Shown here piece after piece: positions 11,276 through 58,900 of a stretch of 64,000 nucleotides of DNA. Under the pieces are notes generated by a model. It had not been told where the DNA came from. It saw only the letters and a program-made list of their open reading frames with translations, and searched no databases. The stretch lies in the IMG/VR virus record IMGVR_UViG_3300043029_000019. The stretch is one strand, 5' to 3'. Within the stretch, counting starts at the first letter, position 1; every line of letters starts with the position of its first letter. Position numbers and translations under genes: made by a program. This stretch comes from an uncultured virus (IMG/VR IMGVR_UViG_3300043029_000019) (taxonomy: Duplodnaviria; Heunggongvirae; Uroviricota; Caudoviricetes).

Positions 11276-11440
11276 ATGGGCCTGTCTGATTTTGACCTCC
11301 TCCCCTCCCTAAAGGAAGGGGATTCCCGGCATCGCTGTCGGGAGTTTTCTGCTTCAATGAGAGTTGCCAATGTCTCAAACAGACACCGGGCTTACACTCT
11401 CTCCACAGACTGTTGCGGCAAGCCCTGCCGCCAATATGTT
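11276..11440 (-). ncRNA. Predicted omegaRNA of TnpB; guide AATCAGACAGGCCCAT (ends approximate)
   Basis: Overlaps tnpB 3' end and right end; the guide is the flank after GTCAA, by the known IS605 TnpB rule. Confidence 0.7.
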
Positions 11441-12639
11441 CCTGGCCGCGTTTATATCGCGGTCATGGTTGGTTTCGCACTCCGGACACGTCCACTGTCT
11501 TTTGGAAAGAGGCATGGAGGTTTCTACGTGGCCGCAGTTCGAGCAGCGCTTGCTCGATGGATACCATCTGTCGATACCTATCAGATCGCGCCCATACCAC
11601 AGGGCTTTGTACTCAAGCTGTCTTAGAAATTCCGACCAGCTTGCGTCTGAAATGGATTTGGACAGATGGCGGTTTTTCTGCATGTTCTTCACCGACAGTG
11701 TTTCAACCGCGATAGCTTGGTTCTCGCGTATCAGCCTGGTTGAAAGTTTATGCAGAAAATCCCTGCGCGTGTCTGCGATCTTTGCATGTAAACGCGCTAC
11801 GTTCTTACGTGCCTTGGCGCGGTTGTTTGAACCTTTTTGTTTCTTGCTCAGGCGGCGCTGCAAAACACCCAGGCGCTTTTCGTATTTGCGCAGGGTCCTG
11901 GGTGCTGCGACCTTTTCACCGTTCGACAGCACCGCAAAATGGCTCAAACCAAGGTCAATACCGACCTTGTTATCTGCAGCAGGTTTTGCTGCTACGCAGT
12001 CATCGCACAGAAGCGATACAAAGTACCTGCCTGCAGGGTCTTTAGAAACAGTGCAGGTTGTCACCTTGGCCGCTTTGGGGATGGTACGTGACCAGCGGAT
12101 GTTTAGCGGTTCCTTCATCTTTGCCAGAAAAAGCGCCTTCCCGTCCCAGCGGAACGCGCTGGCAGCGTAGGTTGCGGACTGCCTACCATGCTTGGACTTG
12201 AAGGATGGATACTGCGCTCTTTTAGCAAAGAAGTTGTTAAATGCTGTGTGCAGATGCCGCAACGCCTGTTGGATCGGAACAGATGAAACGTCACCGAGCC
12301 ATGCGTACTGCGGATCTTTCTTGAGTGCAGTGAGTAAAGAGGATGTTTCGTGATATCCGATACGCTCCTGGCGCTTAAACCATGCGTCAGTGCGCACGCG
12401 CAGCATGTAGTTATATACAAAGCGAGCACACCCGAACGTCTGTGCAAGAACCTTCTCTTGCTCAGGCGTTGGGTAGAATCGAAACTTATATGCTCGCTTG
12501 ATATCCATGGTTTACATAGTATGATATTTATGCGTAAAATACAAGTGGTTGCTTGCGCAAACCCGAAAAACCATGACTGCATTCGCAGTCAGCGCCTTAT
12601 ATCCCGGCCCTGAAGGACCGGGTTTTACGGCGCGTGTCG
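11292..12639 (-). mobile_element. IS200/IS605-family element, tnpB only (IS1341-type), TAM TTTAT
   Basis: Left-end hairpin CCCGGTCCTTCAGGGCCGGG after TTTAT; right-end hairpin ending GTCAA; no target duplication; no tnpA. Confidence 0.92.
11375..12508 (-). CDS. tnpB: RNA-guided endonuclease TnpB
   Basis: KRAYKFRFYP, GIDLG (RuvC-I), AVETL (RuvC-II), CSNC/CPEC zinc finger, HDRDINAARNI (RuvC-III). Confidence 0.97.
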   Translation of the reverse strand: MDIKRAYKFRFYPTPEQEKVLAQTFGCARFVYNYMLRVRTDAWFKRQERIGYHETSSLLTALKKDPQYAWLGDVSSVPIQQALRHLHTAFNNFFAKRAQYPSFKSKHGRQSATYAASAFRWDGKALFLAKMKEPLNIRWSRTIPKAAKVTTCTVSKDPAGRYFVSLLCDDCVAAKPAADNKVGIDLGLSHFAVLSNGEKVAAPRTLRKYEKRLGVLQRRLSKKQKGSNNRAKARKNVARLHAKIADTRRDFLHKLSTRLIRENQAIAVETLSVKNMQKNRHLSKSISDASWSEFLRQLEYKALWYGRDLIGIDRWYPSSKRCSNCGHVETSMPLSKRQWTCPECETNHDRDINAARNILAAGLAATVCGESVSPVSV

Positions 12640-34538: not shown

Positions 34539-34946
34539 TTATGCAGCTTCGATAATGATTTCAGTTCGCGGCCTGTCACCGTAAATCTTCCGCGCTTCCA
34601 ACTCGAACACCTGGGAATCATCGCGCCAAGCCACCCCGTTAAGACAGTCCTTGGCAAACTTCACAAGATTGTCCAAGTCCGGCTTTTTCGTATGCTGTTG
34701 CGGGGCAGAAGGTTTCAGTTTTGCCGCATTCTTGCCCGTTCCAAAGTGGCCTTTAGGTCGCGGCATGGCAAATAGCATTTTCACTTTCAGCGGCCCTTGA
34801 AAAAGGTCTTTAACTTGCCCCTTTGCGAGCAACAACCATTTGCCTTCCTCGGTTTCCTGATCGTTGTATGTCTGCACAAATTGACCTCTCCGTGCAAAAC
34901 GAGGCCTTTTCTTCGCTATAGGTGCGCCTTCAATAACAATGTTCAT
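34539..34946 (-). CDS. rusA: Holliday junction resolvase
   Basis: KPDLDNLVKFAKDCLNGVAWRDDSQV. Confidence 0.92.
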   Translation of the reverse strand: MNIVIEGAPIAKKRPRFARRGQFVQTYNDQETEEGKWLLLAKGQVKDLFQGPLKVKMLFAMPRPKGHFGTGKNAAKLKPSAPQQHTKKPDLDNLVKFAKDCLNGVAWRDDSQVFELEARKIYGDRPRTEIIIEAA

Positions 34947-35119
34947 GCCGCCTCCTTAAACACTTCCTTGACTCGCTGCCACATGCGCTTGTATTTTCCA
35001 AGGCGCGTTTGTAGCTCCCCGATAATTTGCCGACACCGCGCAAGCTCAGCGTCTTTCGCGTCGATCATCATGCGCTGCTCGGATACCGCTATTTCCAGGG
35101 CCGTGCATCTGTCACACAT
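34943..35119 (-). CDS. 58-aa coiled-coil protein
   Basis: Hand-translated MCDRCTALEIAV...FKEAA; AAGGAG RBS; ATGA overlap with rusA. Confidence 0.65.
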   Translation of the reverse strand: MCDRCTALEIAVSEQRMMIDAKDAELARCRQIIGELQTRLGKYKRMWQRVKEVFKEAA

Positions 35120-35155
35120 ATGCGCTCCTTTAATTAATTTTCCATGTTTGACGGT

Positions 35156-35203
35156 CTAATATCTGGATACGTGGAAAATTTTCCACCTATCACTCTGTTG
35201 TAT
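35156..35203 (+). other. Array entry site (degenerate attC or attI equivalent)
   Basis: CTAAT...GATACGTGGAAAATTTTCCACCTATC-ACTCT-G|TTGTAT. Confidence 0.55.
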
Positions 35204-35206
35204 TGC

Positions 35207-35428
35207 TTAGTCGATCTCGGTGATAGTTATTTCCACTCTCCGGCCATGCACTGATTCTGTCGTGTATCCGCAGGCGTTTATTAGTTCGCCAATGGTCATC
35301 ACATCAAAATCGCTACTTACAAAGCATGTCCTTACGCCGCTACTTGTTTGAAGAGGGTTAAAGTGTCCTTCAATCTCTGATTGGAGCTTCTCTTGGCAGT
35401 CAGAAATATAAACGGTTTCTTCCACCAT
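35207..35428 (-). CDS. Cassette 1 ORF, 73 aa hypothetical
   Basis: AAGGAGG RBS; fills the cassette. Confidence 0.8.
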   Translation of the reverse strand: MVEETVYISDCQEKLQSEIEGHFNPLQTSSGVRTCFVSSDFDVMTIGELINACGYTTESVHGRRVEITITEID

Positions 35429-35452
35429 TTCCTCCTTTTATGACCCAGCGCA

Positions 35453-35541
35453 ATACAACCAGCACCTAAAGCGGATGGAATACGCTGGCTGCTAAATTCT
35501 CAAACGGTCACCCGCCACCGCTTAGGCTTATTCCGTTAGAG
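35453..35541 (+). repeat. attC site 1
   Basis: ATACAAC..CTAAAGCGG...CCGCTTAG..GTTAGAG. Confidence 0.85.
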
Positions 35542-35835
35542 CCCTAGCTTCCGGATGTTTTGGAGCACTATCCGTAGGGTCGATTTTACCGGCTTGTCCT
35601 TAAATGTGGTGATAGGCCACCCGCGCTTATCCTTCTTCCACCAGGGCAGCATTTGGCGTTTGGTGCGCTCCAGTTCTTTTTGCACTGTCAGGCGCGGGGC
35701 CGTCACAGCCTCCTTCAACTCCATAGCTTGCCGATGAGTTACGTTAATTTTGTAAAATGATAGCCAAGCATCTACAGCGGTTTGCTCTGGCCATGTGCTG
35801 CCGCAACATTGCTGTGTATCCATATTTTCCTCCAT
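35536..35835 (-). CDS. Cassette 2 ORF, hypothetical
   Basis: Stop codon is the TTA of the R' box; probable start MDTQQ at 35823 after GGAGG. Confidence 0.75.
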   Translation of the reverse strand: MEENMDTQQCCGSTWPEQTAVDAWLSFYKINVTHRQAMELKEAVTAPRLTVQKELERTKRQMLPWWKKDKRGWPITTFKDKPVKSTLRIVLQNIRKLGL

Positions 35836-35836
35836 G

Positions 35837-35908
35837 CTCTAACAAACGCATCGACCCTCGCCTTCTGCTGGACTCGCTACGCTCGCCGGTCATGCTTGAT
35901 CGTTATGT
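35837..35908 (+). repeat. attC site 2
   Basis: CTCTAAC..ATCGACC...GGTCAT..GTTATGT. Confidence 0.8.
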
Positions 35909-35909
35909 G

Positions 35910-36083
35910 TCATACCTTTCGGACATACTCGCCACTCGGAAGTTGTATATAACCGCCAACAGGCGCTTTCTCGTAGGCTTCGCACGTCCTGCATATGTTT
36001 GCAGGCTGCGAATAATGGATGTTTGGGTTACTGTCATCCTCGCAAAACTCGCGACCGCACTTTTTACAAACACATTTACGCAT
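35910..36083 (-). CDS. Cassette 3 ORF, 57-aa zinc finger
   Basis: MRKCVCKKCG...CRTC; AGGTGG RBS. Confidence 0.7.
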   Translation of the reverse strand: MRKCVCKKCGREFCEDDSNPNIHYSQPANICRTCEAYEKAPVGGYIQLPSGEYVRKV

Positions 36084-36105
36084 ATATTTGCCACCTAAAT
36101 TCTGC

Positions 36106-36208
36106 ACATAACCAGCCAGTCCAGCGGACGGAAGACCAGCGGCGGTTCTCGTTTAGGTCATCGCTGCGCCGTTATCGGCACACCGTCCGCTGACCATGTT
36201 CGTTATCT
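36106..36208 (+). repeat. attC site 3
   Basis: ACATAAC..TCCAGCGGACGG...CCGTCCGCTGA..GTTATCT. Confidence 0.9.
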
Positions 36209-36433
36209 TTACTCAGTATCCCATGGCCTATCATCCTTACTCTGGCAGATATAGAAATCAAAGTCGCAGTCTGTTCCTTCAGGAGGAACCAGTTTGTACC
36301 CTGGCGTACATTGTGAAAAATCGTTACCGCATGGCACGAGGTCAGTAATATCACACCCGCATTCAGCCCCATTTTGCAGCCCATCAAAGTCATTCTCGTC
36401 AAGATAGTTTTTTACTATTCTCAGGCAATCCAT
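36209..36433 (-). CDS. Cassette 4 ORF, 74-aa Cys-rich acidic protein
   Basis: FDGL...ECGCDITDLVPC...CTPGY; AGGAG RBS. Confidence 0.8.
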   Translation of the reverse strand: MDCLRIVKNYLDENDFDGLQNGAECGCDITDLVPCGNDFSQCTPGYKLVPPEGTDCDFDFYICQSKDDRPWDTE

Positions 36434-36455
36434 TTTGCGCTCCTATGAAGTTAAA

Positions 36456-36513
36456 AGATAACAAGTCCATAAACACGGACTCGTTTCACTCGCCGGTTAT
36501 GTCGGCGTTGGCT
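36456..36513 (+). repeat. attC site 4 (short type)
   Basis: AGATAAC..ATAAACACGGAC...CCGGTTAT..GTTGGCT. Confidence 0.85.
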
Positions 36514-36518
36514 GGCTA

Positions 36519-36716
36519 TCAAGTACGCCTTATCAGGTCATCTAATCGGTCAAGTTCTTCGCCGGTTCTGCGCGGCTTCATTGGCACTGTCGGGCCATAG
36601 TTTCTACGTTCAACAGCTCCGCAGTTTACGCATGTACCAAGGGGTGGCAGTTTTCCTCCCCAAAACTCAGGCACTTCTACAGCGCCGCCGCATTCGCTAC
36701 AGGTTCCTTTAATCAT
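36519..36716 (-). CDS. Cassette 5 ORF, 65-aa zinc ribbon
   Basis: CSECGG...CVNCG; GGAG RBS. Confidence 0.8.
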   Translation of the reverse strand: MIKGTCSECGGAVEVPEFWGGKLPPLGTCVNCGAVERRNYGPTVPMKPRRTGEELDRLDDLIRRT

Positions 36717-36739
36717 TTAGCTCTCCGATCCACCGCGCC

Positions 36740-36841
36740 TGCCAACCAGCCACCGCAGCGGAAGGAAGACACGGTTCAGGTTTGCGTTAAAATTCGTGGT
36801 TCGCGGTCGGCCTCGCGCCTCCGCTGGCCTCATCGTTGTTT
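36740..36841 (+). repeat. attC site 5
   Basis: TGCCAAC..CCGCAGCGGA...TCCGCTGG..GTTGTTT. Confidence 0.8.
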
Positions 36842-36843
36842 TG

Positions 36844-36969
36844 CTATTCGTTCTCGCAACTTTCGCAGACACACTCAGGGCAGAGAACAGCCCCGCATTT
36901 TTCACATTCATGAGCATCTTCTTCCGAGAAATCGCAGCCACAATTTTCACACAATGTCGTTATGTCCAT
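36844..36969 (-). CDS. Cassette 6 ORF, 41-aa Cys-rich protein
   Basis: Hand-translated MDITTLCENCGCDFSEEDAHECEKCGAVLCPECVCESCENE; GGAG RBS. Confidence 0.75.
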   Translation of the reverse strand: MDITTLCENCGCDFSEEDAHECEKCGAVLCPECVCESCENE

Positions 36970-36994
36970 TTTCGTCTCCGTAGGATGCAGCGCA

Positions 36995-37052
36995 AAACAA
37001 CCAGTCAATCAACACGGACTCGTAAACTCGCCGGTTATCGGCATCGTTATAT
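36995..37052 (+). repeat. attC site 6 (short type, near copy of site 4)
   Basis: AAACAAC..ATCAACACGGAC...CCGGTTAT..GTTATAT. Confidence 0.85.
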
Positions 37053-37409
37053 CCCCAGTAGCTCGCCAACTTTTCTCCAGTCCACATATGGCCTCTCGTG
37101 TTCACCAGGATCGCGCAGTAGTGGAATACCAAGTGCAGCATCGTCTATATACATCTGACCATAGGCTTTAGGCGAGTTTGTCCATTCTTTTTGTGTCGGA
37201 TTCTCGTTTACCCCATAAAGAGGTATGCCGTTTTCCTTAAACCAACTAACAGCGTCTGCAAGGTGGTCTCCATCCCGCATCGTAAATAAGATAATCTTGT
37301 TCCCCAGAACTGAGAGTTTTTTCAAATAAGGCGCAGCTCCAATATCCGCCCCCACATTTGGGTATTCATGTTTCACACACGTTCCGTCAAAATCTACACA
37401 TATTTCCAT
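37047..37409 (-). CDS. Cassette 7 ORF, small HAD-superfamily phosphatase
   Basis: ICVDFDGT, ILFTMR, SPK...YIDD. Confidence 0.88.
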   Translation of the reverse strand: MEICVDFDGTCVKHEYPNVGADIGAAPYLKKLSVLGNKIILFTMRDGDHLADAVSWFKENGIPLYGVNENPTQKEWTNSPKAYGQMYIDDAALGIPLLRDPGEHERPYVDWRKVGELLGI

Positions 37410-37431
37410 GTTTAAGTGTCCTTTAATTTTG

Positions 37432-37497
37432 ATATAACAAAACGTTAGAGTCGGATTGCGCAAACTGCCGCGCAACCGGTTACCCTTGTCGCTATAT
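37432..37497 (+). repeat. attC site 7 (chimeric/degenerate)
   Basis: ATATAAC start; right half shares CCGGTTACCCTTGTCG with site 8; R' reads GCTATAT. Confidence 0.6.
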
Positions 37498-37503
37498 TTT
37501 GCT

Positions 37504-37644
37504 TCAACGCCATGCTCTAGGAGAAAGCCCCAGCAATAAGAACCATCCGAATCCACCAGCAAAAAAAGTCCAGTGTAGGGCAGCGTAGATGCAGAAAAGT
37601 ATCAGCAAAACGTCAAATCCTGTCGCATATTCCCTCATGTTCAT
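37504..37644 (-). CDS. Cassette 8 ORF, 46-aa hydrophobic protein
   Basis: Hand-translated MNMREYATGFDVLLILFCIYAALHWTFF...; AAGGAG RBS. Confidence 0.55.
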   Translation of the reverse strand: MNMREYATGFDVLLILFCIYAALHWTFFAGGFGWFLLLGLSPRAWR

Positions 37645-37660
37645 ATCTCCTTAAAAAATC

Positions 37661-37726
37661 GGCTAACCAGCGGGTCAACGCGGACCGCCGAAACTGCCCG
37701 GCGTCCGGTTACCCTTGTCGTTGTCA
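37661..37726 (+). repeat. attC site 8
   Basis: GGCTAAC..GTCAACGCGGAC...GTCCGGTTAC..GTTGTCA. Confidence 0.85.
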
Positions 37727-38026
37727 ACTACACCGCCATATCCTGACCATACGTGCATGATTTGACGGCCTGTTGCTCTTCCGCATCCCTGCGTATACCC
37801 AACTCTTGTTTTTAAAAACAGCTCCGAAAGAGTTGCTATGAGCAGGCTGTACGCCAAGCAGGTCTAGCACCTCCCGCACTTCGTCCATCGTTACGGTGCC
37901 GTTTTTCTTGGCCAGGAGTTCGGCTATAGACCGTGCCGTGCCGACAAAATCACCTTCTTTGATTTCAATGGCGTCGAGGCCGTGCTGCTTGAGCTTCTCG
38001 CCTTTAAAGAGTCCCATCTGGTTCAT
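37724..38026 (-). CDS. Hypothetical phage early protein
   Basis: AAGGAGG RBS; SNRPSNHAR..RIW. Confidence 0.75.
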   Translation of the reverse strand: MNQMGLFKGEKLKQHGLDAIEIKEGDFVGTARSIAELLAKKNGTVTMDEVREVLDLLGVQPAHSNSFGAVFKNKSWVYAGMRKSNRPSNHARMVRIWRCS

Positions 38027-38035
38027 GATTCCTCC

Positions 38036-38233
38036 TTACTTGATAATCCCTCGCTCACGTTGCCGCAGGCGACGAGCCTTTTCCTTCGCACCTTGCGCCG
38101 GTCTGGTGGGATATTTGTAATTTCGCCCTGCAAGCCCTTTTGTTCTGTTGCTAAGTCCTGCGTAAACATCTTCCACTGTAGGGAATCCAAGGCTTTTAAA
38201 AACGCTTTGATAGTTCAGTTGATAGTTGTTCAC
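38036..38233 (-). CDS. Small basic protein
   Basis: QGAKEKARRLRQ; coupled start. Confidence 0.6.
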   Translation of the reverse strand: MNNYQLNYQSVFKSLGFPTVEDVYAGLSNRTKGLAGRNYKYPTRPAQGAKEKARRLRQRERGIIK

Positions 38234-38490
38234 ATTGCCTCCCTGAGTAATTCATTGGTTCGCTGCAAAAGCTCTTCTTCGCTTCCGTACTCCCTGCAAA
38301 ATGCTTTCTTCCCAAGCGTGTGTATGCCGTCCGCGCCTTGATGATGCCTATAGCAAAGCGGAATCGTCTTGCTGTGCTTTCGCGTCTCGCCGTACCTGCG
38401 GACATGATGCACGTTGCAAGGGGTTGCTCCGCATACAGCGCAAGGAAGAGAGGCCACGGCGTTAAGCCTGCGTTTATCTGCTACGGTCAT
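38230..38490 (-). CDS. Ref/DUF968-like HNH-type nuclease
   Basis: LPCAVCG...HH...TIPLCYRHHQG..GIH. Confidence 0.8.
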   Translation of the reverse strand: MTVADKRRLNAVASLPCAVCGATPCNVHHVRRYGETRKHSKTIPLCYRHHQGADGIHTLGKKAFCREYGSEEELLQRTNELLREAM

Positions 38491-38870
38491 ACCGCCACCC
38501 TCTCTTTCCACTCCACTCCATGCTCTGCGCCAAAACAGTAGATAAGCTCGATTAGCTCCGAAAACTCCGCCTTGCTCATTTTGGAAGTGTGCGCCCCTAT
38601 CACCACAAAGCCCCCGTCGATCCCAGGAACGGCACGTTGCTTTTTCAGCCCTGCGGTAAGCACGTCCTTCCACTCTTCCTTCGTGAGTTTCTGCCCGTAC
38701 CATTCGACTTGCGTTGACAATTCGGTGAGCAAGGGCCACAGCAAAGCGTTCTGATCGAGTGAGCGTGTCGGCGGCTTAATCTCAACCACCATCCCTTCCG
38801 GTGCGTTCTGTACTGCTGCCATGGCGCGTTGACGGGCGGTTTCGTGAGCGAGGGTAAAGCGTTGTTTCAC
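38487..38870 (-). CDS. ninB: NinB (Orf) recombination mediator
   Basis: TRSLDQNALLW...EEWKD...TSKMSKAEFSELIELI. Confidence 0.9.
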   Translation of the reverse strand: MKQRFTLAHETARQRAMAAVQNAPEGMVVEIKPPTRSLDQNALLWPLLTELSTQVEWYGQKLTKEEWKDVLTAGLKKQRAVPGIDGGFVVIGAHTSKMSKAEFSELIELIYCFGAEHGVEWKERVAV

Positions 38871-39036
38871 CGTTCCACCTCCATGCATCCCTCTATCCGC
38901 AACTCGGGCCACGCCTGTTCCGCTTGCTGCTTTGCGTGAGTCGCAGACATGGCAAAGACCCGCAGTTTTATCCCTTCGCTCATTTCAACTGCATAAAGTT
39001 CCATGTCTTCACAATTGTTTGTTGTGAGTACGTCAA

Positions 39037-42517: not shown

Positions 42518-42901
42518 ATGGAAAAAATCATTGGGAAAAGAATACTTGAGGTGAGGAAGAGAATTTCCGACCTCAATCAATCGGATTTAGGCGCTCTCTT
42601 TGGCGTGAAAAACGTCGCCGTCTCACAATGGGAGAACGGCGAAACGATGCCAAGCGTTGAGGTGTTAGAAAAGGTCGCCGACATGGCTGGCGAGTCGCTG
42701 GACTGGCTTTTCGGGAGAGAGGACAAAACCATTTCAAACGAAGAGCGCAGGCTTTTGAGGTTTTTCCGAGGAACAAGCGAAGAAGGACAAGAAATAGTGC
42801 TGGAGACCGTAGAGGAAGGTGTTAAAGGGGTCGTCTGCCATCTAAGACAAAAAAGCAAGCCGCCCTCACGCAATGGTCAGAGCGGCTCCGTGAGATATTA
42901 G
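42518..42901 (+). CDS. XRE-family repressor (cI-like, no S24 peptidase domain)
   Basis: IGKRI...LNQSDLG..FGV...AVSQWENG..P...SLDWL. Confidence 0.9.
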   Translation: MEKIIGKRILEVRKRISDLNQSDLGALFGVKNVAVSQWENGETMPSVEVLEKVADMAGESLDWLFGREDKTISNEERRLLRFFRGTSEEGQEIVLETVEEGVKGVVCHLRQKSKPPSRNGQSGSVRY

Positions 42902-46986: not shown

Positions 46987-49900
46987 TCATCGGGTTACCG
47001 TCTGGTTATACTTGCGGTTAAACGCCATAGTCAGGCGCTGGATTTCTCGCTCGATACGTTCAATTCTATCCTTATACCGCTCCTTGTCCACGTTTTCCAG
47101 CTTTTCTTTACCTTGACGCAGCTTTGTAAGCCGCCGCCGCAGATGATCGGCGGTCCGTTTCAGGGCGATCTCGGGGTGTTCCTGCCGGTAGCGCATGGCA
47201 TCCCCTTTGCGGCCAGTCTCCATCATTTCTTTGAACAGACCATAATGCGCCGTCACCTTGTCCATGTGATTGTGCAAGTTCTGTCGGTCGTAGTAATCAC
47301 TCTTTTCCTGATAGACCTGGCGGGCAAACGGAACGCGCCTGATGGACAACTCTTCCCCTCTGGCCATAGCGGCCATGGCGTTGATGCTGTCGGCATAGAA
47401 CCGACCGGCACCTCCGGTTGCGAAATCCCAAAAGTGGTCCAACACTTCCGGCGATATGTCGACCACCCCAGGTTCAACACTGCTGCCACCCGTCAGTTCG
47501 TTAAGTTGTTTGGATATTGCCATGCTCAACGGCCGGACGCTCGACCAATACATCTCACTCTTCGGTTTCGGCGGGCCGAAAGACGGTTGATCCGGCATGA
47601 TCGGGGTACCCATGAAATTCTCGTTAGTTGCCACCTGCACGAACGGATCCATGATGGTCGGTGAGATCAGTTGCAACAGCGAATCATCACCACCCAGCGG
47701 GTTAAAGGCGTTCATGCCGGCATGGAACAGGCTCACCGCACCTTGGGCCGGGCTCTTGCCATGCTTGCCGCCACTGGTCAGGTAGGCGCGAACGTCGCTC
47801 ATGGTGTAACCCAAGGCTACGAACATATTGTACCCGTAGGGTAGTTTGACCTTGAAGGCGTCCCCCGATTCGTCACCGCGCATAAGCAACAAATTGGTGT
47901 GCTTGGTGTAATCGCTCACCTTGTCCCAGCGGTTTTCATCGTCGTCATCGTCGCCAGCCTGCAGCCGGTTTATTTCAGCCAGAGCAAAGGCGGTCAGAGT
48001 AATGCCTGCGCATATCTTCCTGGTGCGCTTGCTCTTGGCCAGGCTGGTGATAATCCGCGCCGATCCTTGAACGCCCGCATTGAAAAACAGATATAAAGCG
48101 TTGGCGGCCGGTCCGAGTTCCCCTTTGCGGTTGAAGTTGACGGTCAGGTTCTTGGCTAGGCTGGCGGCCTTGGCTTCACTCATGCCGTTCTCGATGGCGG
48201 TCTTAAAGGCCGACAGGCGCACCGCATTTTCCACCATGGTATTGTAATCGCCGATAAACTTGCCGACCTTCTGGACATATTTCCAGACCGTACCGAGCTT
48301 GCCGTCCTGCTCCCGTACCAGCTTCTGAATCTGTCTCTGCGTTTGATCGATGTTCTGCAGGTCCAGGTATCCCACCTGTCCGCCCGCTGCCTTGAACCGG
48401 GCGTACCACTTGGCCATGTCAGAATCGTTCGATCCGCGCAGGGCGTTACGAATCCCGCGCATAGATGCAGGAATGCCCTTTGCCACCTTGGCTGCGATCT
48501 TGGCACTTTCCTCCCCGGACAGGTTGATCATGGCCGTCTGAAAATCGCGCTCGAAGTTGGTGATGATGAATTCGGGATTCAGCGAGGTATTGACCATAGC
48601 CAGCACTCTATTCAACCAAGCCAAAGCGCGAATAGATTTGCCCTGGTCGGCTGCTCCAAGGTTTTTCATCACGCGGGCCAGATCCCTGTTTTCGATCTGA
48701 ATATAATGCACCTGGCCGTCGCGGGTTATCGGCAACACATTGTCAGCACGGATCCACTCAAAGTCGTCCACTTCGGCCACCTGCCGCGGCGGGGTAGCTT
48801 CCATCTCTGTACGAATCTCGGCGATCTCCTGTTGCAGCCTTTCGATTTCCGCGCCGTCCTCGGCCTTTTCAAGAGCGGCCTGCCTGCGCTGCAGCTTCCC
48901 CTTTAAGGCGGTAAAGGCCGGATTCTTGGCCAGCACCTGACGGGTCGGCAGATTGTCCCTGGTGCGTACCGTCCATAGCGACGGATCGGGGTTTTCTTCC
49001 ACCATCTGCAAGAAAGCCTTACCGACCTTCGCCCGTTCGGCCCGCACGATGGTATCGGCCACCTGGGCGGCCAGATGCGCCAGAATGTTCTCGGCTTCGC
49101 TGCGGCGTCCAAGCGCGGCCCTGGTGCCGGACTTGGTGACCGCAAACCCGCGTCCGATGCTGCGGCCGTGGCCTTCGTCCAATCCATCCGGCGCACCTTT
49201 GAGCGGCACATAGAAGTTGAACTGTTCCCAAGCGTCCAGCCGTTCCTGCTCTTCCAATCCTTCCTCGCGAATAATACGGCGCTGCATTTCGGCCATGCTC
49301 CAGACCTTTTGCGCCAAATTGTGCAGCACCCGCAATTTACCAGCCTTGCGGAACCCGTCGATAATCTTGGAAGCCTCGGCATCGGTCATGCCGGATCCAC
49401 CTTCCTCGAATTCCGGATTGATCTTCTGAATGTAGGCATTGCGCTCCGGGACATGCCTGGCGTACAGATACTGTTCCAGTTCATCAAGAGAAACCGGCGC
49501 TGCTTTGATTTCTTCCATCAGCGGTTCGATCTGTTCGGCCTCGAACTTGTCCAGACGATCCTTGGCAATGCCGTGATACAGTTCCTCGGTCAGATACGGA
49601 TTGTTGTCCTCGCGTTCTTGCCAGTCGCGTTTCTTCAACGCCTGCTGGGTGCGCTTGAGCGGCAGGAACTTGTCCTGGAACTTCATGCGCAGATAATCGA
49701 GGCGGGTGCCTATGGCCTCTTTGCCACGATCGATCCGGCTGGCTCGTGGAGTCTGTGCGGTTGCCGCGGCGGCGCGGGAGAACTTTATGGATTGTTCAGG
49801 TTTTTCGGACAACTCGCGTCTGCGGTTTTGGTATGCATCCTTTGCGGCTTCGATAAGTTCGGTATCGGATATGTCGTCTCGGACACCCTGCTGACCGTAG

Positions 49901-52900
49901 GAATCCACAACGTCACGCATGTTGGCGATCACACCTTCCTCCGTGACAAATCCGTTTGAAATAGGCTTCCCGGCTCGAAGGTCCAATAAAGATTTGTAAG
50001 CCCCTGCCAGTTGTTCTTCTATGCCGGCTTCATTGTCGACTGCATCTTGTTCAAAATCATAATCGTATTGAGATGCATAGTTGTCGAGCCATTCCCTTTC
50101 TTCGGCAAGCCGGGCGTCCAAATCTTCGGCCAATCCATAGTCACCAGATTCATAAGCAGCATCCGTTTTCTTTTCGAGCTCGGATACCTTGGCATACAGG
50201 GCCTCAATGGCAGACTTGGAATAGGAGATACGAACCTCAGAGCCACCTTGTTCCACGCCCTTCTCCACATATTTCCGGGCTTTGGCCACCAACGCCACAA
50301 TATCGGCATCGGAGTATTTCATGTTGAAGCCCATCGAGCGCAACCAATCGCGGATCACGACAACGGCCCGTTTTAAAAAGCCGTTGGTTTCTCCACGCCC
50401 AGCGATCTCGGCAAGCCACTCTTCGGCGGCCCCGCGTCGTCCACCTCTGGTGCGCAAGTCGTAGCCCCAGCGGGCGGCAATCGGCACCAAGTCTTTACGA
50501 CGTACATTGCCAATCTGATCAAGAATGCTGTTGAAATCCTTGCCCAGCATGCCGCGCAGGCCGTAATGACCGACCACTTCATGCAACAGCACATGAGTGG
50601 CGCGGGCGGTACTCGGCAGGGCGTCGGCAATCAGGAAGATGGTTCCGGTCTTGGGATCAAACACCCCATCGATTCCGGCCCCTTCATGCGGGTCATTGGA
50701 AAAGATATAGTTTTTCAGATGGTCCGGCAGGTCCTTTACGCTCTGCACCGCCTCGATGCGCGGGGCGTTCTTCCAGTTCTGCAGGATCGGGCCAATAGTC
50801 TGCAAGACCTGCTGTTTGGTGAGGCGTGCTTGCTGTTGCGGGGTTTTGCGGGAATAGACAGGATCGCTATCCGTTTCCGATGCCGCATCGGCCTCTGCCG
50901 AAAGCTCCTGTTCAACCTCTTCAAGGCGACGCTGCTTTTCTTCCAGTTCCTGCTCTTTCGGGAAAGGTTCATCCACCAGGCTTTCCAGTTTCGGAATCAT
51001 CTCCCGCGCCTTATCGGCCTTTTCCTTAAGTTGCTGCACGATTGTAGGGAATTCCCTAATCCTGCGAGAGATTCCGGCAGACAGGCCGCGCACTGCCTCG
51101 GCCAGGTTCTTGCCGCCCCTTCCAAGTGCTCCTGAATAACCGGTATTTACCAGCCAGGTTTTCCCGTCTTTGGCCTCAGCGAAAATCTCAACGATCTGTT
51201 CGCTACCGCCTATTCGGCCGCCTACAACTACCTGGGCCGACAGGTCAACCTCAAGCTCACCGAGCCGGACAGACCCGACTTGCGTTTCGTCCATTTCCGC
51301 CTGCGGATCCGCTTGATCAAGATTTGCCTCGATGGCGGCTTTGACCTTCTGCGTAATCGCTTTGTCCATAGCGGAACGACTGATGTAGGTATCGCCTTCA
51401 AACTTCGCCTCGAAGGCCATGCCATCGCCCAAAACTTTCTGCACGGCATCGTGCGCCTTGGTCCTCGCTGTGTACTTTTTGCCATCGACGTTGATGCTGA
51501 ACTTCTCGCCGTTTTCTGCCGCAGCATCGGCAAGCCGGGTAATGTGCCCTTTGGCCTCGGCGGCTTGAGCATACCCAAAGTTTACGGATTCACCGTCGTA
51601 GGTAATCGAGACTTTTCTGCTGTTGGCTTTTTCTTCGATCCCGGCCTGAGTCCCGGCGTGCTGGGCAAAAACCTCAACCGCATTCTCGTTTTCCAGCGCC
51701 CTCTGGTGATCGTCCAGTTCATCCCGCAGGCCATAGATGCGGCGACGGTGGGCGTTCTTCTGCCGGTTCAGCTTGTCGATCTCGGAGGTCAACTGTACCC
51801 GCTCAAGCTGCAGTGGTTCTCCGGAGGCAATCGCGGCGATTTCGGCCATACCGACGCTATCGGAGTCGTCAAACTCGATATTGAAATCCCCGGTGTAGTG
51901 ACGCAGGCCGTTGATCATCTTGAGCTTGGTCGCGTTCAGGGACCAGAGTTTGGCATCCACAGTGCGGTTGGTGGTGTAGGCCAGGATTTCAACTTCGAAT
52001 TTGTCGGCATACTTCTCAAACAGACTGTTGCCTTGGCGAATGATACGCCCTTCGCGCTGCTCAATATCCGACGGTTTCCACGTCACGTCCACATGATGCA
52101 GAGCAACTAAACGCTCCTGCACGTTGGTCCCGGCCCCCATGCGCGGGGTGGACCCGAACAGCACCCGGACCTTACCGGCGTTTACTTCCTCGAACAGTAG
52201 CTTTTTCTGATCGTCGGTGGTGGCCTCCTGCACATAGCGAATTTCATTTTCCGGAATGCCGCTTTCGATCAGGCGTTTTTTGATCTCGTCGTAAGCGTTC
52301 CATCCTCCCTGCTGGGCAGCTTTCAACGAGGCCATTTCGTTTTGATCGTATTTCTCAAGCTGGTCACTGAGTTTCATGGCCTTGGCTTCGTCGCCAGCCT
52401 CTTCGGCCTGCTCCAACTGCCGCACCAAGCTATCGTACTTGGCAATTTTGGCCGCGTCACCCTTGGCTTTGGGCACACTGCGATCCAGGAAGACAAGCTG
52501 TGTCCCCTTGTCCTTCTGCCAGGCGTCGTAGACCCGCTTGACTTCCACGGCCACCTGCTCCAGTTTGCCGCCTTCGCCGTTGTCCTGGATATAGGGATCG
52601 ACCGCCCGGGCATCGAGAGATACCTTGCGGGCGCGGTCCATCAGTCGTAGCCGTTCGGCGTTGCGCTGGTCCACGTCCTCTATGTCCGGAAGATGGTCGA
52701 ACCCGGATACGATATCTTCGATGATGCGTTCCTGCACCTCCGACGGCTCGACGTTGACCGACCGACGTCCACCACTCTTGACCTTGGGAATAGGGAATTC
52801 GGCCCCGTCGTTGTCCTCTTTGTACCACTTCTTGATATCATCGTTGGAAACAGCGTCGGCGAAAGAATAGTACAGGTCCATCAAAGAGCGCATATTGGAC

Positions 52901-55900
52901 CAGTCGCGGCCAATGCGGTTGACCTCCTTAAGCCCCCGACCGCTTTCCTTCGGCTCGAACGCTGTGCTCACGCTGGCAAACTGACTGCGCCAAGCGTCAA
53001 AATGTTCCAGCCCCATTTCCTCCAGAGCGTCAGCGGCCAGATAACGCATGATACCATACAGTTCCACGGCGCTGTTGGATACCGGGGTGCCGGTCATGAA
53101 CGCCACGCTGCCATTTTTGGACTCACGCAGTACCCGCACCTTCGACCACAGATCATACGCCTTGGCCGAACCGGCTTTCGGATTCATGCCGCGCACGTTG
53201 AGACGGGAATGGTAGAAGAGGTTTTTGAACTCGTGGGATTCGTCCACGGTCAGATCGTCAACCCCCATCTGCTCAAAGGTCAACAGGTTATCGCGCTTGG
53301 ACGCCCGTTCTTTGACCTTCTCCAGCCGCGCCTCGATGTTGTCGCGCAGCCGTTCGGCCTCCTTAACCGTCAATGGCTTGCGGCGACCGCTGTAACCTTC
53401 AGCCTCAGCTTCGGCTTCGGCCTCTTCCACGGCCTGAATCGCCATGCTCAATTCTTCCTGTAGATAGCGTTCTTCGGTGGCTGGAGATATGCCTATAAAC
53501 TGGAAAGAACTATGCGGTACGATGACCAAATCCCAATCGCCAGTAGCGATACGGGCGAACAAACGCTTACGTTTGTTCTTACTCAAATCCTTCACTCCGG
53601 CCGCCAACACCCTGGCCCCGGGATACAGGGTGTAAACATCCTTGGCCACCTGTTCGAGGATGTGGTTCGGAACCACCATCATTGGTTTTTTCGACAGGCC
53701 CATACGCTTGCGCTCGATGGCGCGGGCAATCGCGGTAAAGGTCTTGCCGCTGCCAACGGTGTGATCGTACAGCACAAAACGGTCGACAATACCGCGCCAG
53801 ATGCCATTGACCTGATGCCGGCGCAGTTTGATGATATGGTCGGGCACCTTGCCAGGGAATCGTAGGTGCGAACCGTCGCGCTGCTTGGTCACTCGCACGT
53901 TGAACATGCGGTTGAACAGGTCCACCAACTCGCGGCGCCGTTCGGAATCACGAAACACCCAATCGGTGAACTCTTCCTTGATCGTTTCAGCCATGTCGTT
54001 GGCCGCTTGGGTCGCTTCGGTGTCAACAAAGGTACGAGTGCTACCGTGACCGTCGCTGACGGTGCGCGTCACCTTGATAGCCTGGCTATTTAGAACATTG
54101 CTCAACAGGTCGACCACGTTCCGGCCCGGCGTGTTCCAACTTGCTGCACCGGACGTTGCGGCATTGCCCGTTACTGAAAAGGTATTGGTCAGGCGTGAGA
54201 ATAGCACCTTGGCCGGGGCTCCAGTCAGGTGTTCGACAAACGCAGCATACGTCTTTTCCGGAACCCAAGTCGCCCCAAGCGACACCGTTACTTTGTCAGC
54301 GGTCCATGGTTCGGGCTGCACCTTTTCGAGGGCGGCAATGTTCTTGTCCATCTCGGCCTGCTTGGCCGCTTCAAGCTTGCGTACCACGTTGCCGCCGAGA
54401 TATTCGTCCGCAGTTTCCCAGCGACCCGTCTCCGGGTCCTTGAAGATGACCGGGCTTTCCATACCGGTGTGCAATTCGTCAACCGCCCGCTGTTCGGTCT
54501 GTCCGGTCAAATCGGCGATCCGCTTCAAGTCGACCCCGCCCGTCTCAGACAACACCACGGCCAGGGCATCGGTGGCGCTGTCAGCACTGGTCGGTACTTC
54601 GTAGGGATAAACGATGCGTTTATCGAGAATATCGGCCGTTTTGACGATGGCTCCACGAGGCTTCAACCCCAAAGTTTTGGCGCGAGCCTTGGTGATCGGC
54701 GCTTTGTACTTGGCTTCGAGCGAACGGAGCAAAGCTCCATTCGGCAAGGCGTCCACGATGCGTAGCATCTTGCTCGAATTCATGTAATCGTGCTCTTTGA
54801 CAAACGCCTGATACTGTCGTTTGAGCTTCTTGCGGTTGGCCTCGATCTGTTTTCCTGCGGTGTTCTGCGTGTTCTCCAGGTTGATCTGTTCGATCAATGT
54901 ATCGAGGATTTGCACGGCCCCCTTAAGCCGCGCATAGCCCAGCTTGCCAAGTTTCTTGGTGCCGGGAATATCGGCCTCATTGTCATATACCCGCTCTTCC
55001 TTCTGATTGAGCTTGGTCGGTTTGCCGTTCGAACCGAGAACCTTGACCGGCTTGCCCTTTTTGTCGAGCTTGTCGACAACCTCGTACCACTTGCCATCTT
55101 CGTTCTGCTGCAAGCTGTTATGCCAAGGGGAGTCTTCGGTCAGGACCCGTTCGGCAAACAGTTCACCGCCGCCTGGGGCTTCTTTCTCATAAACTTGGAT
55201 CAGTTCGCCGTTGACGTTGAACATGACATTGCCGATCTCGCCGCCGCGCAACGCAACCTCAATAGAGGTCTGCAAATCCTTGAATGCTTGGCGGGTTCGG
55301 TCCTGCGGGGTTTCTGCCGCAAGGATGTTCTTGGGCAGGCTTTGAATACGAGTGTCAAGTTCCTCGGACAAGGACGTCCCAGGCTCCAGATGCACGTTTA
55401 CATCGTTGTGCATGTTCTGGCTGCCCGATCTATCCAAGGTGCCGATGATGTTCTGAGGATGTTTTTTGAAATACTCGTTGACGGTGATCGGATCGCCACC
55501 CAGCGGATCGGCAACTTCGTCGGTTCCCACCCACTGCACATCGTTACGGCTTTCAGGATCCGCGATTTTCTGCAAGACAATGATGTCGGTGACAACTTCG
55601 GTGCCAGCATTGGCCTTGAAAGCGGTATCGGGCAAACGGAAGGCGGCGACAAGATCGGCCTGGTCCGCAATTCTGGCGCGGGCCTCCTTACTCTTGGCGT
55701 CGAGGAAATAGCGCGACACGACGAACGCCTGCACACCGCCAGGCTTAAGCGACTCAAGACCGGCCAGCATGAACTGGTTGTGCATGGAGAACCGGTTGAA
55801 GTCGGGCGTGTATTTGAACCGCAAGCTGTTTTGGCTGAATGGCGGGTTGCCGATAACGAAATCGAAATAATCAGGGGGCAGCGGGATTTTTTCAAACCCG

Positions 55901-58900
55901 CTGTGAACGACGTTCGATTGCGGATAGAGAGCGGCCGCGATACCGGCTGTCAGCGGATCGTATTCGACACCAGTAAAGTGGGTACGCCCGGACAGTCCTT
56001 CCGGGATCAGGCCAAGGAAATTACCCGTCCCCATGGCCGGTTCCAGCACGTTTCCACCGTTAAAACCAAGGCGTTGTGCAATTTTCCATAGGCCGTCCAC
56101 CACGTCCTTGCTGGTGTAATGGGCGAACTGCGTGGAGTTACGCGCTACCTCCAATTCTTTTTCAGTCAGCAGTCCTTCAAGTTCTTCGACCTTGCTTTCC
56201 CAGCCTTTGGCCATGGACCCGTCGGGCCGACGGAAGGCATTGGCCAGCCCACCCCAGCCGACATAGCGGGCCAAGACTTGCTGTTCCTCTGCGGTGGCAA
56301 AGCGTCTTTCTTTCTGGAGGGTTTTGAGAATGCGGATTGCAGCCATGTTGTCGGCATACTTCGCCGTTTCGCCGCGTCCAAGCTCAAAATCGCCGGGGAT
56401 GCGGTAATTGGTGGCAGGCGTTCCCTGGGGTTCTAAATCTCGTCGGCCTCGATCTTCTCGAGCAGATCGTCCTCCGGTTTGATCAGAATGTACTCGGGGA
56501 GAACCACCTCTTCGGCTTCGTGGCGTTGATACCCGGCTGCCATCAGTTGATTGATCTGCTTGTGCGCTCTCTCGGCTGCTTTCAGCGTCAGCGGCAGAAG
56601 CTGTTTCGATTTCATCAGTGCCTTGTGTTGTTTCGGGCACCACTCGTGGAGATGGATTATCGCCCTTTCCTGCAGTTCCTTCACGGTCGTCCCGTACAGA
56701 CTCCCCGCTTTCTGCTGCGCCTGTTTCCTCGATTCGATCATCGATATTATCCTTTCCGGCATGTACCTCGTCTGAGGATAGCATATCACCGTTTTTCACT
56801 TCATCAAGGAAGTGCATCAGGTAGGGTTTCACCTTAGCGCTGAAATTCTGCACAATGAAGCGCATGAAATCCTTGACGCCTTTGCCTGCTGCGCGGAACT
56901 CTTCCAGGGCTTTCTGAAAATGCGGCTTGGCTTTCGCGTAGGTATCCCGGTCCAAACCAGAAGGAAAGCTCGAGAGCGAATCGGCCCCACCGAACAGATC
57001 CACCAGCCCCTGCATGGCCTCACCCACACCCTTGACACCGTGCTTGGCCGCTTCGCCTGCAATCTTCTTCGCAGTCTGATTGTCCTGGACCTTCTGCTGT
57101 GCCTTCTGGGGGGTGGCCTTCTTCGTGGTGGTGCGTTTCTTCGCCGGCTTTTTGGGTGCGGCAGGCTCTTCCTCCTGCTCATTGGCCACCTCGTCAAACA
57201 TGGTCGAAAGATCGTCCATATCCATGTCGGCCAGTTCAGAATCAAGAGCGGAAGTAGGCGCACTTCCCCCGTCAAACATATCTGTCTGCTTGGCATCGTC
57301 CTGCGCCTTGGCCATTTCATCTTCCATGGCGAGGGTAGACACATTTGTGCCTTCGGGTTTGGTCTTCTTGCCGAATGCCGGGGGAGAGGCAAAGAGTTTA
57401 CCGTCTTCGCCTACTTGTCTGGCGGGGATTCCTTGGGAATTTTTTTCTTCGGCATTACGGGCATTGCGCTCAATGTCGGCGGCGTCGATTTCGGCGGCCA
57501 AACGCTCGGTTTCTTCTTTGGTTGGCTCTGCAAACGGATCTTCTTCTATCAACTCTTCCGTTTGGGCTGCAGGCGCTTCCAACAAATCCTTGAGCGTTTC
57601 ACGCACCTCGGCCTCGCGGGTTTTGGGGAACACCCATCCACGATGCTTGAGGTTCCACCAGCCTTTGAGCCCGTTTTTGTTCAGACGGTTTTTGTGGGGT
57701 TTGGTATCGCCCTTGACGAGGAAGGCTTTGTCCGACAGGGGCGCGATATGGAGGGGAGCTAATCCAGAAGCGGCAGAGTCGCCAGATCCCGCTTGTACTT
57801 CCGCACCACTTCCTTCTGATCCTGGCTCGGAAGACTCTTGAACGCTTCGCTTCCCTGCATCTGTGCCAGTCCCGTCTTGCTGATCTCCGGCACCGCCAGT
57901 GCCGGTTTGCCCTGCAGCGTCGTCAGGTGCGGAGTTTTGTCCCTTTTGACTACTAGATTCATCAACGTCCTCCTGTTTCTGAACAGTATCGCCGTCCTCA
58001 AGCTCTGTCAAGGAACGGAATTTCATTTTATCCTTGGCGATACCTTCAGGCACACCAAGCCACAACCGGTCCAGATACCCGGCATCATCGGCATTCTGCA
58101 AATAGACGGTATCCGGCAGATCGGCAGGATCCAGTTCAGCAATCTCAACATCCCCGCCCTTGGCTCCTTTATGCTCCGCAATGCGCTGAACGTCGTCCAT
58201 TTCCGTGGTGAACCACAAAGCACGGACATCGGCCCCATTTTGGGCCTTGTGCGGATTATTCGGGTTGGCCTCCAAGTTATCGGCGTGACGGTCCTTGTCG
58301 ACCGTGAACATGGCACGGTACAACTTCTTCCCCTTGCCAATGGCATCCAAGGCATGCTGCTTGCCGGCGCGATAGATGGTGCGCTTGTCGGTATTCGGTG
58401 AAACCTGCTCGTTGGTCAGGTGCTGGACGGACGGCAGATCAGGTGCATTTTCTTGATTGGCAAAGCCCGCCACAGGCCCTTCCTGAGACGAGCTCGTAAC
58501 GGTTTCTACACTTGGCAGATCCGCGGCTCCCTCTTCCCGTTCTTCAATCGCTTCCTCGGCTGGGCGCACTTCCACCGTGCCATCTTCTCCGGCCACGGTT
58601 TTCGCGGCGTCCAGCACCTCCTGGCTGCCGTCGGTCACCACATCCTGGATCACCGTGCCGTCCTTGTCGCGGGAGGTTACGACGGTCTGCGAATCGGTCG
58701 GCTTGCTATCGATGCCGTATCCCAATGCGCTGCCGAGTTTACCGGAACGAGCCAGGTTCAATGTTCCATCCTGCGAAAAGATCAGTGTACCTTCGGGGAT
58801 CTGCGCCGTCTTGAAACCGTCCGGAACCTCGGGCATGGATTCCCCGGGCGTAACCAGTACGGCCGGTTTCCGTCCATCGACCAGTGCCCGCATCTGAGCT

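Follow-up and report, generated by a model that had tools for sequence, protein, structure and literature searches.

Does a string of attC sites in a phage genome belong to an integron, and if so, why does every gene between the sites run against the strand on which cassette genes are normally read? The question is raised by a stretch of 64,000 nucleotides from an uncultured virus of the Caudoviricetes (IMG/VR record IMGVR_UViG_3300043029_000019; the whole stretch is called the window below), in which positions 35154-37726 hold an array without an integrase of its own, made up of an anchoring hairpin that resembles an attC (site 0) and of eight attC sites with the plus strand as their top strand. 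Eight cassettes are delimited by these sites, and each of the eight contains one open reading frame (ORF) on the minus strand. Integrons are generally viewed as devices of bacteria that hold promoterless genes in one orientation for expression from the cassette promoter (Pc), and the strand selectivity of the integron integrase (IntI) is explained thereby. We read the locus, with a probability of roughly 85%, as an eight-cassette cluster of attC sites lacking integrases (CALIN) that sits on site 0, carries reversed ORFs and has its units exchanged at G|TT (the bar marks the crossover) by an integrase acting in trans.

Strand polarity of the attC sites

On the plus strand, the sites read xxxxAAC, a 5-nt spacer, an L'' box that has between one and three extra bases, a variable central part (about 20-60 nt), an L' box, a spacer of 5-8 nt and GTTxxxx. 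The extra bases and the 5-nt spacer sit on the AAC arm, i.e. the 5' arm, of the plus strand, and in the fold of site h each of the three extra bases lies on this arm. When the AAC/GTT pairs were forced in the folding, the minus strand was the more stable one at all eight sites, and the GC skew of the plus strand was negative at all eight as well. In the excerpt of Nivina 2016 (PMC5027507) consulted here, the top strand of an attC is recognized by the position of the extra bases and by a negative GC skew, and the bottom strand by its stabler fold. The extra bases, the folding energies and the GC skew therefore identify plus as the attC top strand and minus as the recombinogenic bottom strand, so that the ORFs are inverted. 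A preliminary description of the locus had made the same assignment and had set bottom-strand folding beforehand as the test that could turn the orientation into a canonical one. The folding did not do so, and the assignment was confirmed by the position of the extra bases, the GC skew and two covariance models alike.

The first of these models, R1, was built from the eight plus-strand sites of the window, and R2 is a second covariance model. Both matched exactly these eight sites in the 64-kb window (E <=3.5e-9 for R1 and E <=4e-5 for R2), all on the plus strand, and neither of them matched an attC on its minus strand. The eight matches fall within 2.3 kb, and the array is thus a CALIN in the sense of at least two attC sites less than 4 kb apart on one strand. 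On 40 array-side regions adjoining IntI genes in 40 bacterial genomes, R2 gave 192 matches, 191 of them on the strand expected from intI, so that the orientation of the model corresponds to the coding top strand in bacteria and to the non-coding strand in the window. In a metagenome-assembled genome (MAG) of an uncultured delta-proteobacterium (L094), R1 found six matches on one strand with the intervening ORFs on that same strand, the divergent gene being an IntI with 463 bits on TIGR02249 (cut-off 265), and in L094 and L171 the R1 orientation, over 6-8 attC sites, is that of the coding strand of a bacterial integron.

Our own scanner for AAC...GTT hairpins was unspecific, with 56 candidates in the window and four of the real sites missed, and was replaced by the covariance models. 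A first DNA pattern of attC had no match in viral contigs, and a broader one returned mostly chance hits among the matches listed from bacterial genomes, R1 leaving only L031, L083 and L094 as real loci.

Searches against Rfam in gathering and E-value modes returned no attC-like family in the window, and the sites might be intergenic hairpins of the phage (terminators, RNA processing sites or hot spots of the T4 kind) that merely resemble attC. Their position between small early genes of a hyperplastic region and the lack of an integrase in the window fit such a view, as does the Rfam result. It does not account for site f, which is nearly identical over its core to the single attC-type site of Rhabdochromatium marinum (L031) and resembles this site and the attCs beside a delta-proteobacterial intI over about 40 nt. 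The counts of promoter-like and terminator-like sites are not above those in shuffled sequences, the joints described below fall exactly at G|TT, and one of the cassettes adjoins attI and intI in another viral locus (L142). Taken together, these points make non-integron hairpins very unlikely, and we continue to treat the sites as attCs.

A second objection concerns their polarity. The sites are near-palindromic, and read on the minus strand they present a stop codon in a YTAAC box, a hairpin, GTT, a Shine-Dalgarno (SD) motif and the next ORF, as would be expected if minus were the attC top strand, the orientation were canonical and each ORF travelled with the attC that follows it. The R'' box of a site is the exact complement of the R' box of the preceding site at six of the eight junctions and fits at six of seven bases at one more (two junctions were judged by eye); R'' of site b is the exact complement of R' of site a, and R' of site 0 (GTTGTAT) that of R'' of site a, whereas only four to six of the seven bases match between R'' and R' of one and the same site. 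This complementarity is a hallmark of integrons, yet it is symmetric for the boxes flanking an ORF, so that it does not decide the strand. The extra bases, spacer lengths, folding energies and GC skew all run contrary to the canonical orientation, and so do both models, which match bacterial attCs on the coding strand and those of the window on the non-coding strand. Further evidence on this point comes from the limits of the mobile unit, which are treated in the next section.

Within each unit, the attC is located next to the start of the ORF, and the sense strand of the gene is the attC bottom strand (Table 1). None of the eight cassettes has its ORF on the attC top strand with the attC 3' of it, as a canonical cassette would. 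The eight short minus-strand ORFs are separated by spacers of 74-127 nt, and all of them are preceded by an SD-like motif 4-12 nt ahead of the start; the only competing plus-strand ORF with an SD is a 37-aa TTG ORF in the ORF4 interval. The ribosome binding sites had been placed just inside R'' by the preliminary description. They are located outside R'', between this box and the ATG, and the part of the claim that stands is that they lie within the cassette. Its statement on the stop codons proved correct, since those of ORF2 and ORF7 lie inside R', where GTTA supplies the TAA of cassettes 2 and 7; the stop of ORF9, the gene beyond the array, is likewise inside an R' box, and those of the other ORFs are 1-7 nt away from it.

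Units of exchange and the ends of the array

The segment 36834-37049, which contains cassette 6, is found with 99.5% identity in the viral loci L137, together with its sibling L143, and L142. The identity is bounded by C-G|TTGTTT and CATCG|TTA, with one mismatch, and the flanks are unrelated between the window, L137 and L142. On its left side, cassette 6 adjoins attC e in the window and another attC in L137; in L142 it borders on the attI beside the intI start codon and is the first cassette next to attI and intI. From these limits it follows that the unit consists of TTGTTT, the reversed ORF6, attC f and G, and that the ORF moves together with the attC next to its start. We take this comparison of contexts to decide the strand assignment on sequence grounds, given that a canonical orientation predicts unit limits at the left boxes (about 36746 to 37001) and the limits observed, 36836 and 37046, are those of the right boxes. 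The whole-cassette joints in metagenomic contigs also use the right-box G|TT, and an intI with attI at the end where L139 and L142 have them is predicted by the plus strand being the top strand. We therefore regard a canonical orientation of these ORFs as extremely improbable, and the reversed one is used in what follows.

Parts of the stretch were found in 20 public metagenome runs from 13 studies of oil-field, aquatic, subsurface and wastewater origin, two of these runs possibly being the source sample itself. We aligned contigs from four runs, each of a different study, to the stretch, and four of the eight joints listed, which show that such molecules exist and not how frequent they are, are whole-cassette sums at G|TT. 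They lead from 35196 to 35535 (338 nt skipped, cassette 1; contig of run X4), from 35196 to 36835 (1638 nt skipped, cassettes 1-5), from 35533 to 37490 (1956 nt skipped, cassettes 2-7) and from 36201 back to 35197 (1005 nt, with cassette 3 followed directly by cassette 1; contig of run X8). In all four runs, contig pieces begin at 36200-36219 (three of them at 36200-36202) and end at 36509, and these positions delimit cassette 4. The joints and the three contexts of cassette 6 show the cassettes to be discrete units that move by exchange at G|TT.

At the left end of the array, the backbone homology with L137 stops at CTG|TTG, that is, in the R' box of site 0 (35197-35203). This site has the layout of an attC with AAT for AAC and without an extra base, and its counterpart in L137 has an extra T on the 5' arm; it was scored by neither R1 nor R2. 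Three of the whole-cassette joints use site 0, so that a resident attC-like site, not an attI, serves as the anchor of the array. In L137 and L143, the array starts at the same backbone site with different cassettes. At the right end, attC h ends at 37726 within the stop codon of ORF9, which shares only its first 29 codons with a 180-aa ORF at the same place in L137 (5190-5732).

The window comprises the whole or a large part of a phage genome. The phage is of podovirus type, and its nin-like early region holds the array, with ninB on one side and rusA on the other. Nearly all window genes backed by a protein family are on the minus strand, namely those for terminase, portal, a GP7-type major capsid protein, a DnaB-type helicase and the replication initiator, and further those for SSB, RusA, NinB, a Rad52-type recombinase, a tail protein and an amidase. 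All cassette ORFs share this strand, and they are thus co-directional with the other early genes of the phage, as had been noted in the preliminary description. The nearest record (G001) is without the array region. Elsewhere on the minus strand of the window, a TnpB or IS605 OrfB-type gene is found among the phage structural genes at 11375-12508 (HTH_OrfB_IS605, OrfB_IS605 and a Cas12f1-like TNB domain; Pfam 1e-21 to 2e-32), and two giant ORFs encode 2043 aa with an LPD22 domain and a match to phrog_9880 (5064-11195) and 4544 aa (46987-60621).

Table 1. Positions of the array components and of neighbouring phage genes in the window
Feature	Position	Strand	Description
Site 0	35154-35203	+	GTCTAAT, 5 nt, 13-bp stem, 5 nt, GTTGTAT; inverted repeat; crossover G|TT between 35197 and 35198
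Cassette 1	35198-35535	+	ORF1 35207-35428 (minus), 73 aa; attC a 35453-35541
Cassette 2	35536-35902	+	ORF2 35536-35823 (minus), 95 aa, TAA inside R' GTTAGAG; attC b 35837-35908
Cassette 3	35903-36202	+	ORF3 35910-36083 (minus), 57 aa, Cys-rich; attC c 36106-36208
Cassette 4	36203-36507	+	ORF4 36209-36433 (minus), 74 aa, Cys-rich; attC d 36456-36513
Cassette 5	36508-36835	+	ORF5 36519-36716 (minus), 65 aa, CxxC...CxxC; attC e 36740-36841
Cassette 6	36836-37046	+	ORF6 36844-36969 (minus), 41 aa, Cys-rich; attC f 36995-37052
Cassette 7	37047-37491	+	ORF7 37047-37409 (minus), 120 aa, relative of HAD-type phosphatases, TAA inside R' GTTATAT; attC g 37432-37497, R' GCTATAT
Cassette 8	37492-37720	+	ORF8 37504-37644 (minus), 46 aa, hydrophobic; attC h 37661-37726
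ORF9	37724-38026	-	100 aa; TGA stop in R' of attC h; first 29 codons backbone, remainder window-specific
RusA gene	34539-34946	-	Pfam RusA 2.5e-29; downstream of the array in the direction of transcription
58-aa ORF	34943-35119	-	Backbone; downstream of the array in the direction of transcription
RecA-dependent nuclease gene	38230-38739	-	Pfam RecA_dep_nuc 1.1e-9; upstream of the array
NinB gene	38487-38912	-	Pfam NinB 5.8e-47; upstream of the array
Repressor-like gene (helix-turn-helix)	42518-42901	+	Family scan

Gene orientation in viral and bacterial loci

An alignment of six IntI sequences (A3) led to at least 582 confirmed IMG/VR stretches, of which 80 were taken and 79 loci analysed. R2 gave 113 matches in 47 of these viral intI loci, and 111 of the 113 are located upstream of intI and divergent from it. 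The two exceptional matches, in L207 (8855-11112), lie downstream of intI on the same strand, which is the known layout with an inverted integrase, and L207 is the only such viral locus among the 79. Our tally of IntI in 148 of 401 genomes includes four unpublished genomes, none of which was used.

The orientation of a cassette gene was called from the best ORF confined between consecutive attCs, scored by its length relative to the gap plus a bonus for an SD, with a call made if the two strands differed by at least 0.25. After removal of near-duplicates, the 63 viral intervals comprised 30 reversed, 8 canonical and 22 ambiguous ones and three without an ORF call, and the 147 bacterial intervals comprised 4 reversed, 106 canonical and 29 ambiguous ones and eight without. 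Before this de-duplication, 32 reversed and 8 canonical viral calls stood against 4 reversed and 111 canonical bacterial calls (Fisher p = 2e-21, or 2e-15 without the SD bonus). By locus, the viral set has 16 with a reversed and none with a canonical majority (6 ties, 25 without a call), and the bacterial set 25 with a canonical and none with a reversed majority (1 tie, 6 without a call). The window together with L137, L139, L157 and L159 accounts for 25 reversed, one canonical and three ambiguous intervals. Independently of the caller, genes with a family assignment were found in reversed orientation between attCs, namely methyltransferases in L159 and L242, phrog_2045 in L242, L244 and L248, a radical SAM protein in L175 and PAPS-reductase-like proteins in L223 and L249, and conserved frames run opposite to the attC top strand in seven of eight homologous pairs of viral cassettes. 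Long ORFs distal to the viral arrays are on the intI strand in 81 cases and on the other strand in 24, and terminase, portal or tail genes flank intI in several viral loci.

The window itself contains no IntI according to Pfam and PHROGs scans of its ORFs and a six-frame search with an IntI hidden Markov model, which returned nothing at E up to 10. Among the five viral records that share this attC family, two have an IntI above the TIGR02249 cut-off, L139 with 372 bits (a 43-kb record with terminal repeats, 100% complete by CheckV) and L142 with 398 bits (88% complete). Both have an intI and an attI adjoining the array, as a complete integron does, and the window has neither. In L139 and L142, intI diverges from the attC top strand and the cassette ORFs point toward intI; the gap between the intI start and the crossover measures 22 nt and 46 nt, respectively. 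In L142, the single cassette is followed by a gene for an RNase_T-type exonuclease (4032-4592, minus strand), the TAA stop of which lies inside the attC R' box GTTAAAC, with no attC beyond it.

Some further observations concern the integrases of other loci. The IntI matches in L155/L173 and L158/L159 are interrupted, with no open frame spanning the match, and these integrases may be decaying while the neighbouring attC arrays persist. L291 (KX853513.1, Virus Rctr41k) carries at 4680-5678 an IntI-like gene annotated as xerD that is 43% identical to the IntI of L142 over 94% of its length, and all 19 coding sequences (CDS) in this stretch are co-directional with it; R2 found no attC in L291, nor in the R. 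marinum intI locus L170. In a FastTree phylogeny with a bacterial sample of one class, viral and bacterial IntI sequences did not form two clades (8 label changes versus 35 in shuffles), and we make no claim of a single IntI lineage of phages.

Regarding the cargo, ORF7 is related to the BT0820 family of HAD-type phosphatases (NF046079 with E 1.3e-21, below the family cut-off; PDB 2obb 8.8e-14; phrog_1238 1e-29). The HAD phosphatase named in the preliminary description thus holds in the form of a relative of the family, and the Cys-rich character of ORF3-6 and the hydrophobic one of ORF8 are read from the translations only. An ORF with 42% identity to ORF4 lies between attCs and intI in L249. 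The proposal that the cargo is phage-derived can be upheld for part of it, as ORF7 alone among the cassette ORFs of the window has a phage family; in the relatives, methyltransferases, phrog_2045, a radical SAM protein and a PAPS-reductase-like protein are among the cargo. The relatives of ORF7 in L010-L016 are without an attC. An N6/N4 DNA methyltransferase family occurs in a reversed cassette of the viral locus L159 (5986-6705) and on the attC top strand in the bacterial locus L267 (2804-5163), with 37% identity over 87 aa; the presence of the family in both orientations suggests that the two cassettes formed independently.

The census also bears on the possibility that the array is passive cargo, namely a piece of a host chromosomal integron that entered the phage by illegitimate recombination, as in the Vibrio and Shewanella phages already published, with the reversed ORFs being a chance sample of cassettes that have their own promoters, such as those for toxin-antitoxin systems. 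The presence of host integron fragments in phages is known (Qi 2023, PMC9892861, in the excerpt consulted), and reversed cassettes exist in bacterial arrays (4 of 110 called). However, all eight cassettes of the window are reversed, compared with a bacterial baseline of about 4%, and neither host genes flanking the array (Pfam and PHROGs scans) nor toxin-antitoxin families in its ORFs (family scans) were detected. The common backbone start site in the window and L137/L143, occupied by different cassettes, the recurrence of reversed arrays beside phage-borne intI genes and the canonical orientation of host-derived phage integrons under the same model (L292 and L293, see below) also speak against it, and we consider passive carriage very improbable. 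The distinct, phage-adapted inverted class postulated in the preliminary description is supported by the sharing of cassette 6, the whole-cassette joints, the recurrence in IntI-bearing viral records and the rarity in bacteria (4 reversed versus 106 canonical).

Known integrons, a possible mechanism and its significance

Several points weigh against the array being a cluster of reversed, integrase-exchanged cassettes. Only seven of the eight sites have the full attC architecture, site g showing GCT for GTT and a poor L box, and the boxes of the g/h junction match at three of seven bases. The window-specific sequence continues to about 37935 within ORF9, so that the variable region ends inside a gene and not at an attC. 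Four of the eight contig joints are not whole-cassette (35199 to 37433, 36837 to 36467, 37627 to 37726 and 37930 to 37980); they may derive from cassettes that are absent from the window and share attC-like ends. With respect to the census, the caller is crude and leaves about one third of the viral intervals ambiguous, 8 of 63 viral intervals were called canonical, and the bacterial baseline was drawn from a single class and one additional MAG. Since R2 was trained on the attC family of the window, other families may escape it, and its matches come from 47 of the 79 viral loci only; moreover, IMG/VR records may hold misbinned or host-flanked DNA. Finally, L001, a viral contig with a RusA 64% identical to that of the window and the only one with attC sites among the RusA-anchored relatives L001-L009, contains one canonical cassette at 8004-8333, the ORF of which (8086-8280) occupies the attC top strand and runs in the direction of the phage genes, and R'' of its second site is complementary to R' of the first. 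Because of this cassette, the reversed layout is not universal in phages: both solutions exist.

In the nin region of lambda and between the promoter-early stem-loops of T4, small accessory early genes are set apart by hairpins and shuffled among related phages. The window differs from such hyperplastic early regions in that its hairpins are attC sites and its exchange points are the G|TT of integrons. Canonical bacterial integrons, as far as the excerpts of Cury 2016 (PMC4889954) and Nivina 2016 (PMC5027507) describe them, share with the window the attC architecture, the G|TT crossover and the complementarity between R'' and the preceding R', and with its relatives the IntI family (TIGR02249 above cut-off) and an intI divergent from the attC top strand. 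In contrast to them, the cassette ORF here runs on the opposite strand, the direction of reading in the array is toward intI, and the gap between intI and the crossover is as short as given above for L139 and L142. With the ORF on the opposite strand, a Pc next to attI could not express the cassette gene.

Three further systems come close. CALINs and phage integrons are described in the excerpt of Qi 2023 (PMC9892861), according to which 10,705 isolate phage genomes were scanned, integron components were found in 21 and IntI1 recombines phage attCs; the likeness to the window consists in attC arrays with small ORFs in phage genomes without an adjoining intI, and in methyltransferase cargo in the relatives. 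In our re-analysis with R2, Shewanella phage M16-3 gave 11 matches and Vibrio phage Va_90-11-286_p16 gave 13 (L292 and L293), and the GenBank CDS of both are on the attC top strand and hence canonical, in contrast to eight of eight on the bottom strand in the window. In the group with an inverted integron integrase (Treponema and others), intI itself is flipped according to the excerpts of Wu 2013 (PMC3607928) and Cury 2016 (PMC4889954). That group is alike in that intI and the cassette genes share a strand, whereas the viral relatives keep the usual orientation of intI to attC (111 of 113) and have flipped ORFs upstream of intI. Cassettes with their own promoter, e.g. for toxin-antitoxin systems, occur in either orientation and are a minority in sedentary integrons (excerpt of Richard 2024, PMC13108822), while in the window the whole array is reversed, no toxin-antitoxin family was detected and each gene has only an SD. 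In the literature covered, we came across neither an account of arrays whose ORFs are all inverted relative to attC nor one of a layout or class of integrons specific to phages, although the supplementary tables of Qi 2023, which lay outside its scope, might list ORF strands. We regard the reversed array as a new variant of the integron that is apparently adapted to phages.

The mobile unit of this variant reads TTRRRY, followed by a gene on the opposite strand and by the attC. We suggest that an integron integrase would fold the minus, i.e. bottom, strand and exchange the units at AA|C (G|TT on the plus strand), and cassettes would be added, removed and reordered at site 0 and between the attCs. 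The integrase would act in trans and could be provided by a co-resident phage of the L139 or L142 kind or by a host integron. The genes are presumably co-transcribed in the leftward early unit, each being translated from its own SD. In the relatives with intI, the platform keeps its usual geometry, and through the flipped ORFs the array is read toward intI, so that intI comes last in the block. An explanation of the flip may be sought in the one-way gene blocks of phages, in which intI and cargo can both be in the sense direction only if the cargo is flipped. Weak expression from a host Pc and expression in the phage, as predicted by the preliminary description, would follow from this geometry, and a bearing on the origin of cassettes would be speculation.

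On a wider scale, phages might keep an integron system of their own, with their own IntI lineages, a pool of backwards cassettes in which the sense strand is the recombinogenic bottom strand, an array read toward intI within one-way early transcription, and accessory or counter-defence genes of phages that circulate among them; to this broader view we give an even chance. Reversed cassettes could also be minted from phage genes if IntI recombined an attC R' box with the GTTA that is made opposite a TAA stop followed by C, and if this is true, the minting would make the genesis of cassettes directly observable. Loci of this kind would provide natural material on how attCs become attached to genes, on the control of intI as the last gene of a phage operon and on the exchange of cassettes between phages and bacteria. 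They also point to a cassette pool that surveys assuming the ORF on the attC strand might mis-annotate or discard. Reversed arrays show that the recombination machinery of integrons and their expression logic can be uncoupled, and that phages gain by them a site-specific means to shuffle small early genes.

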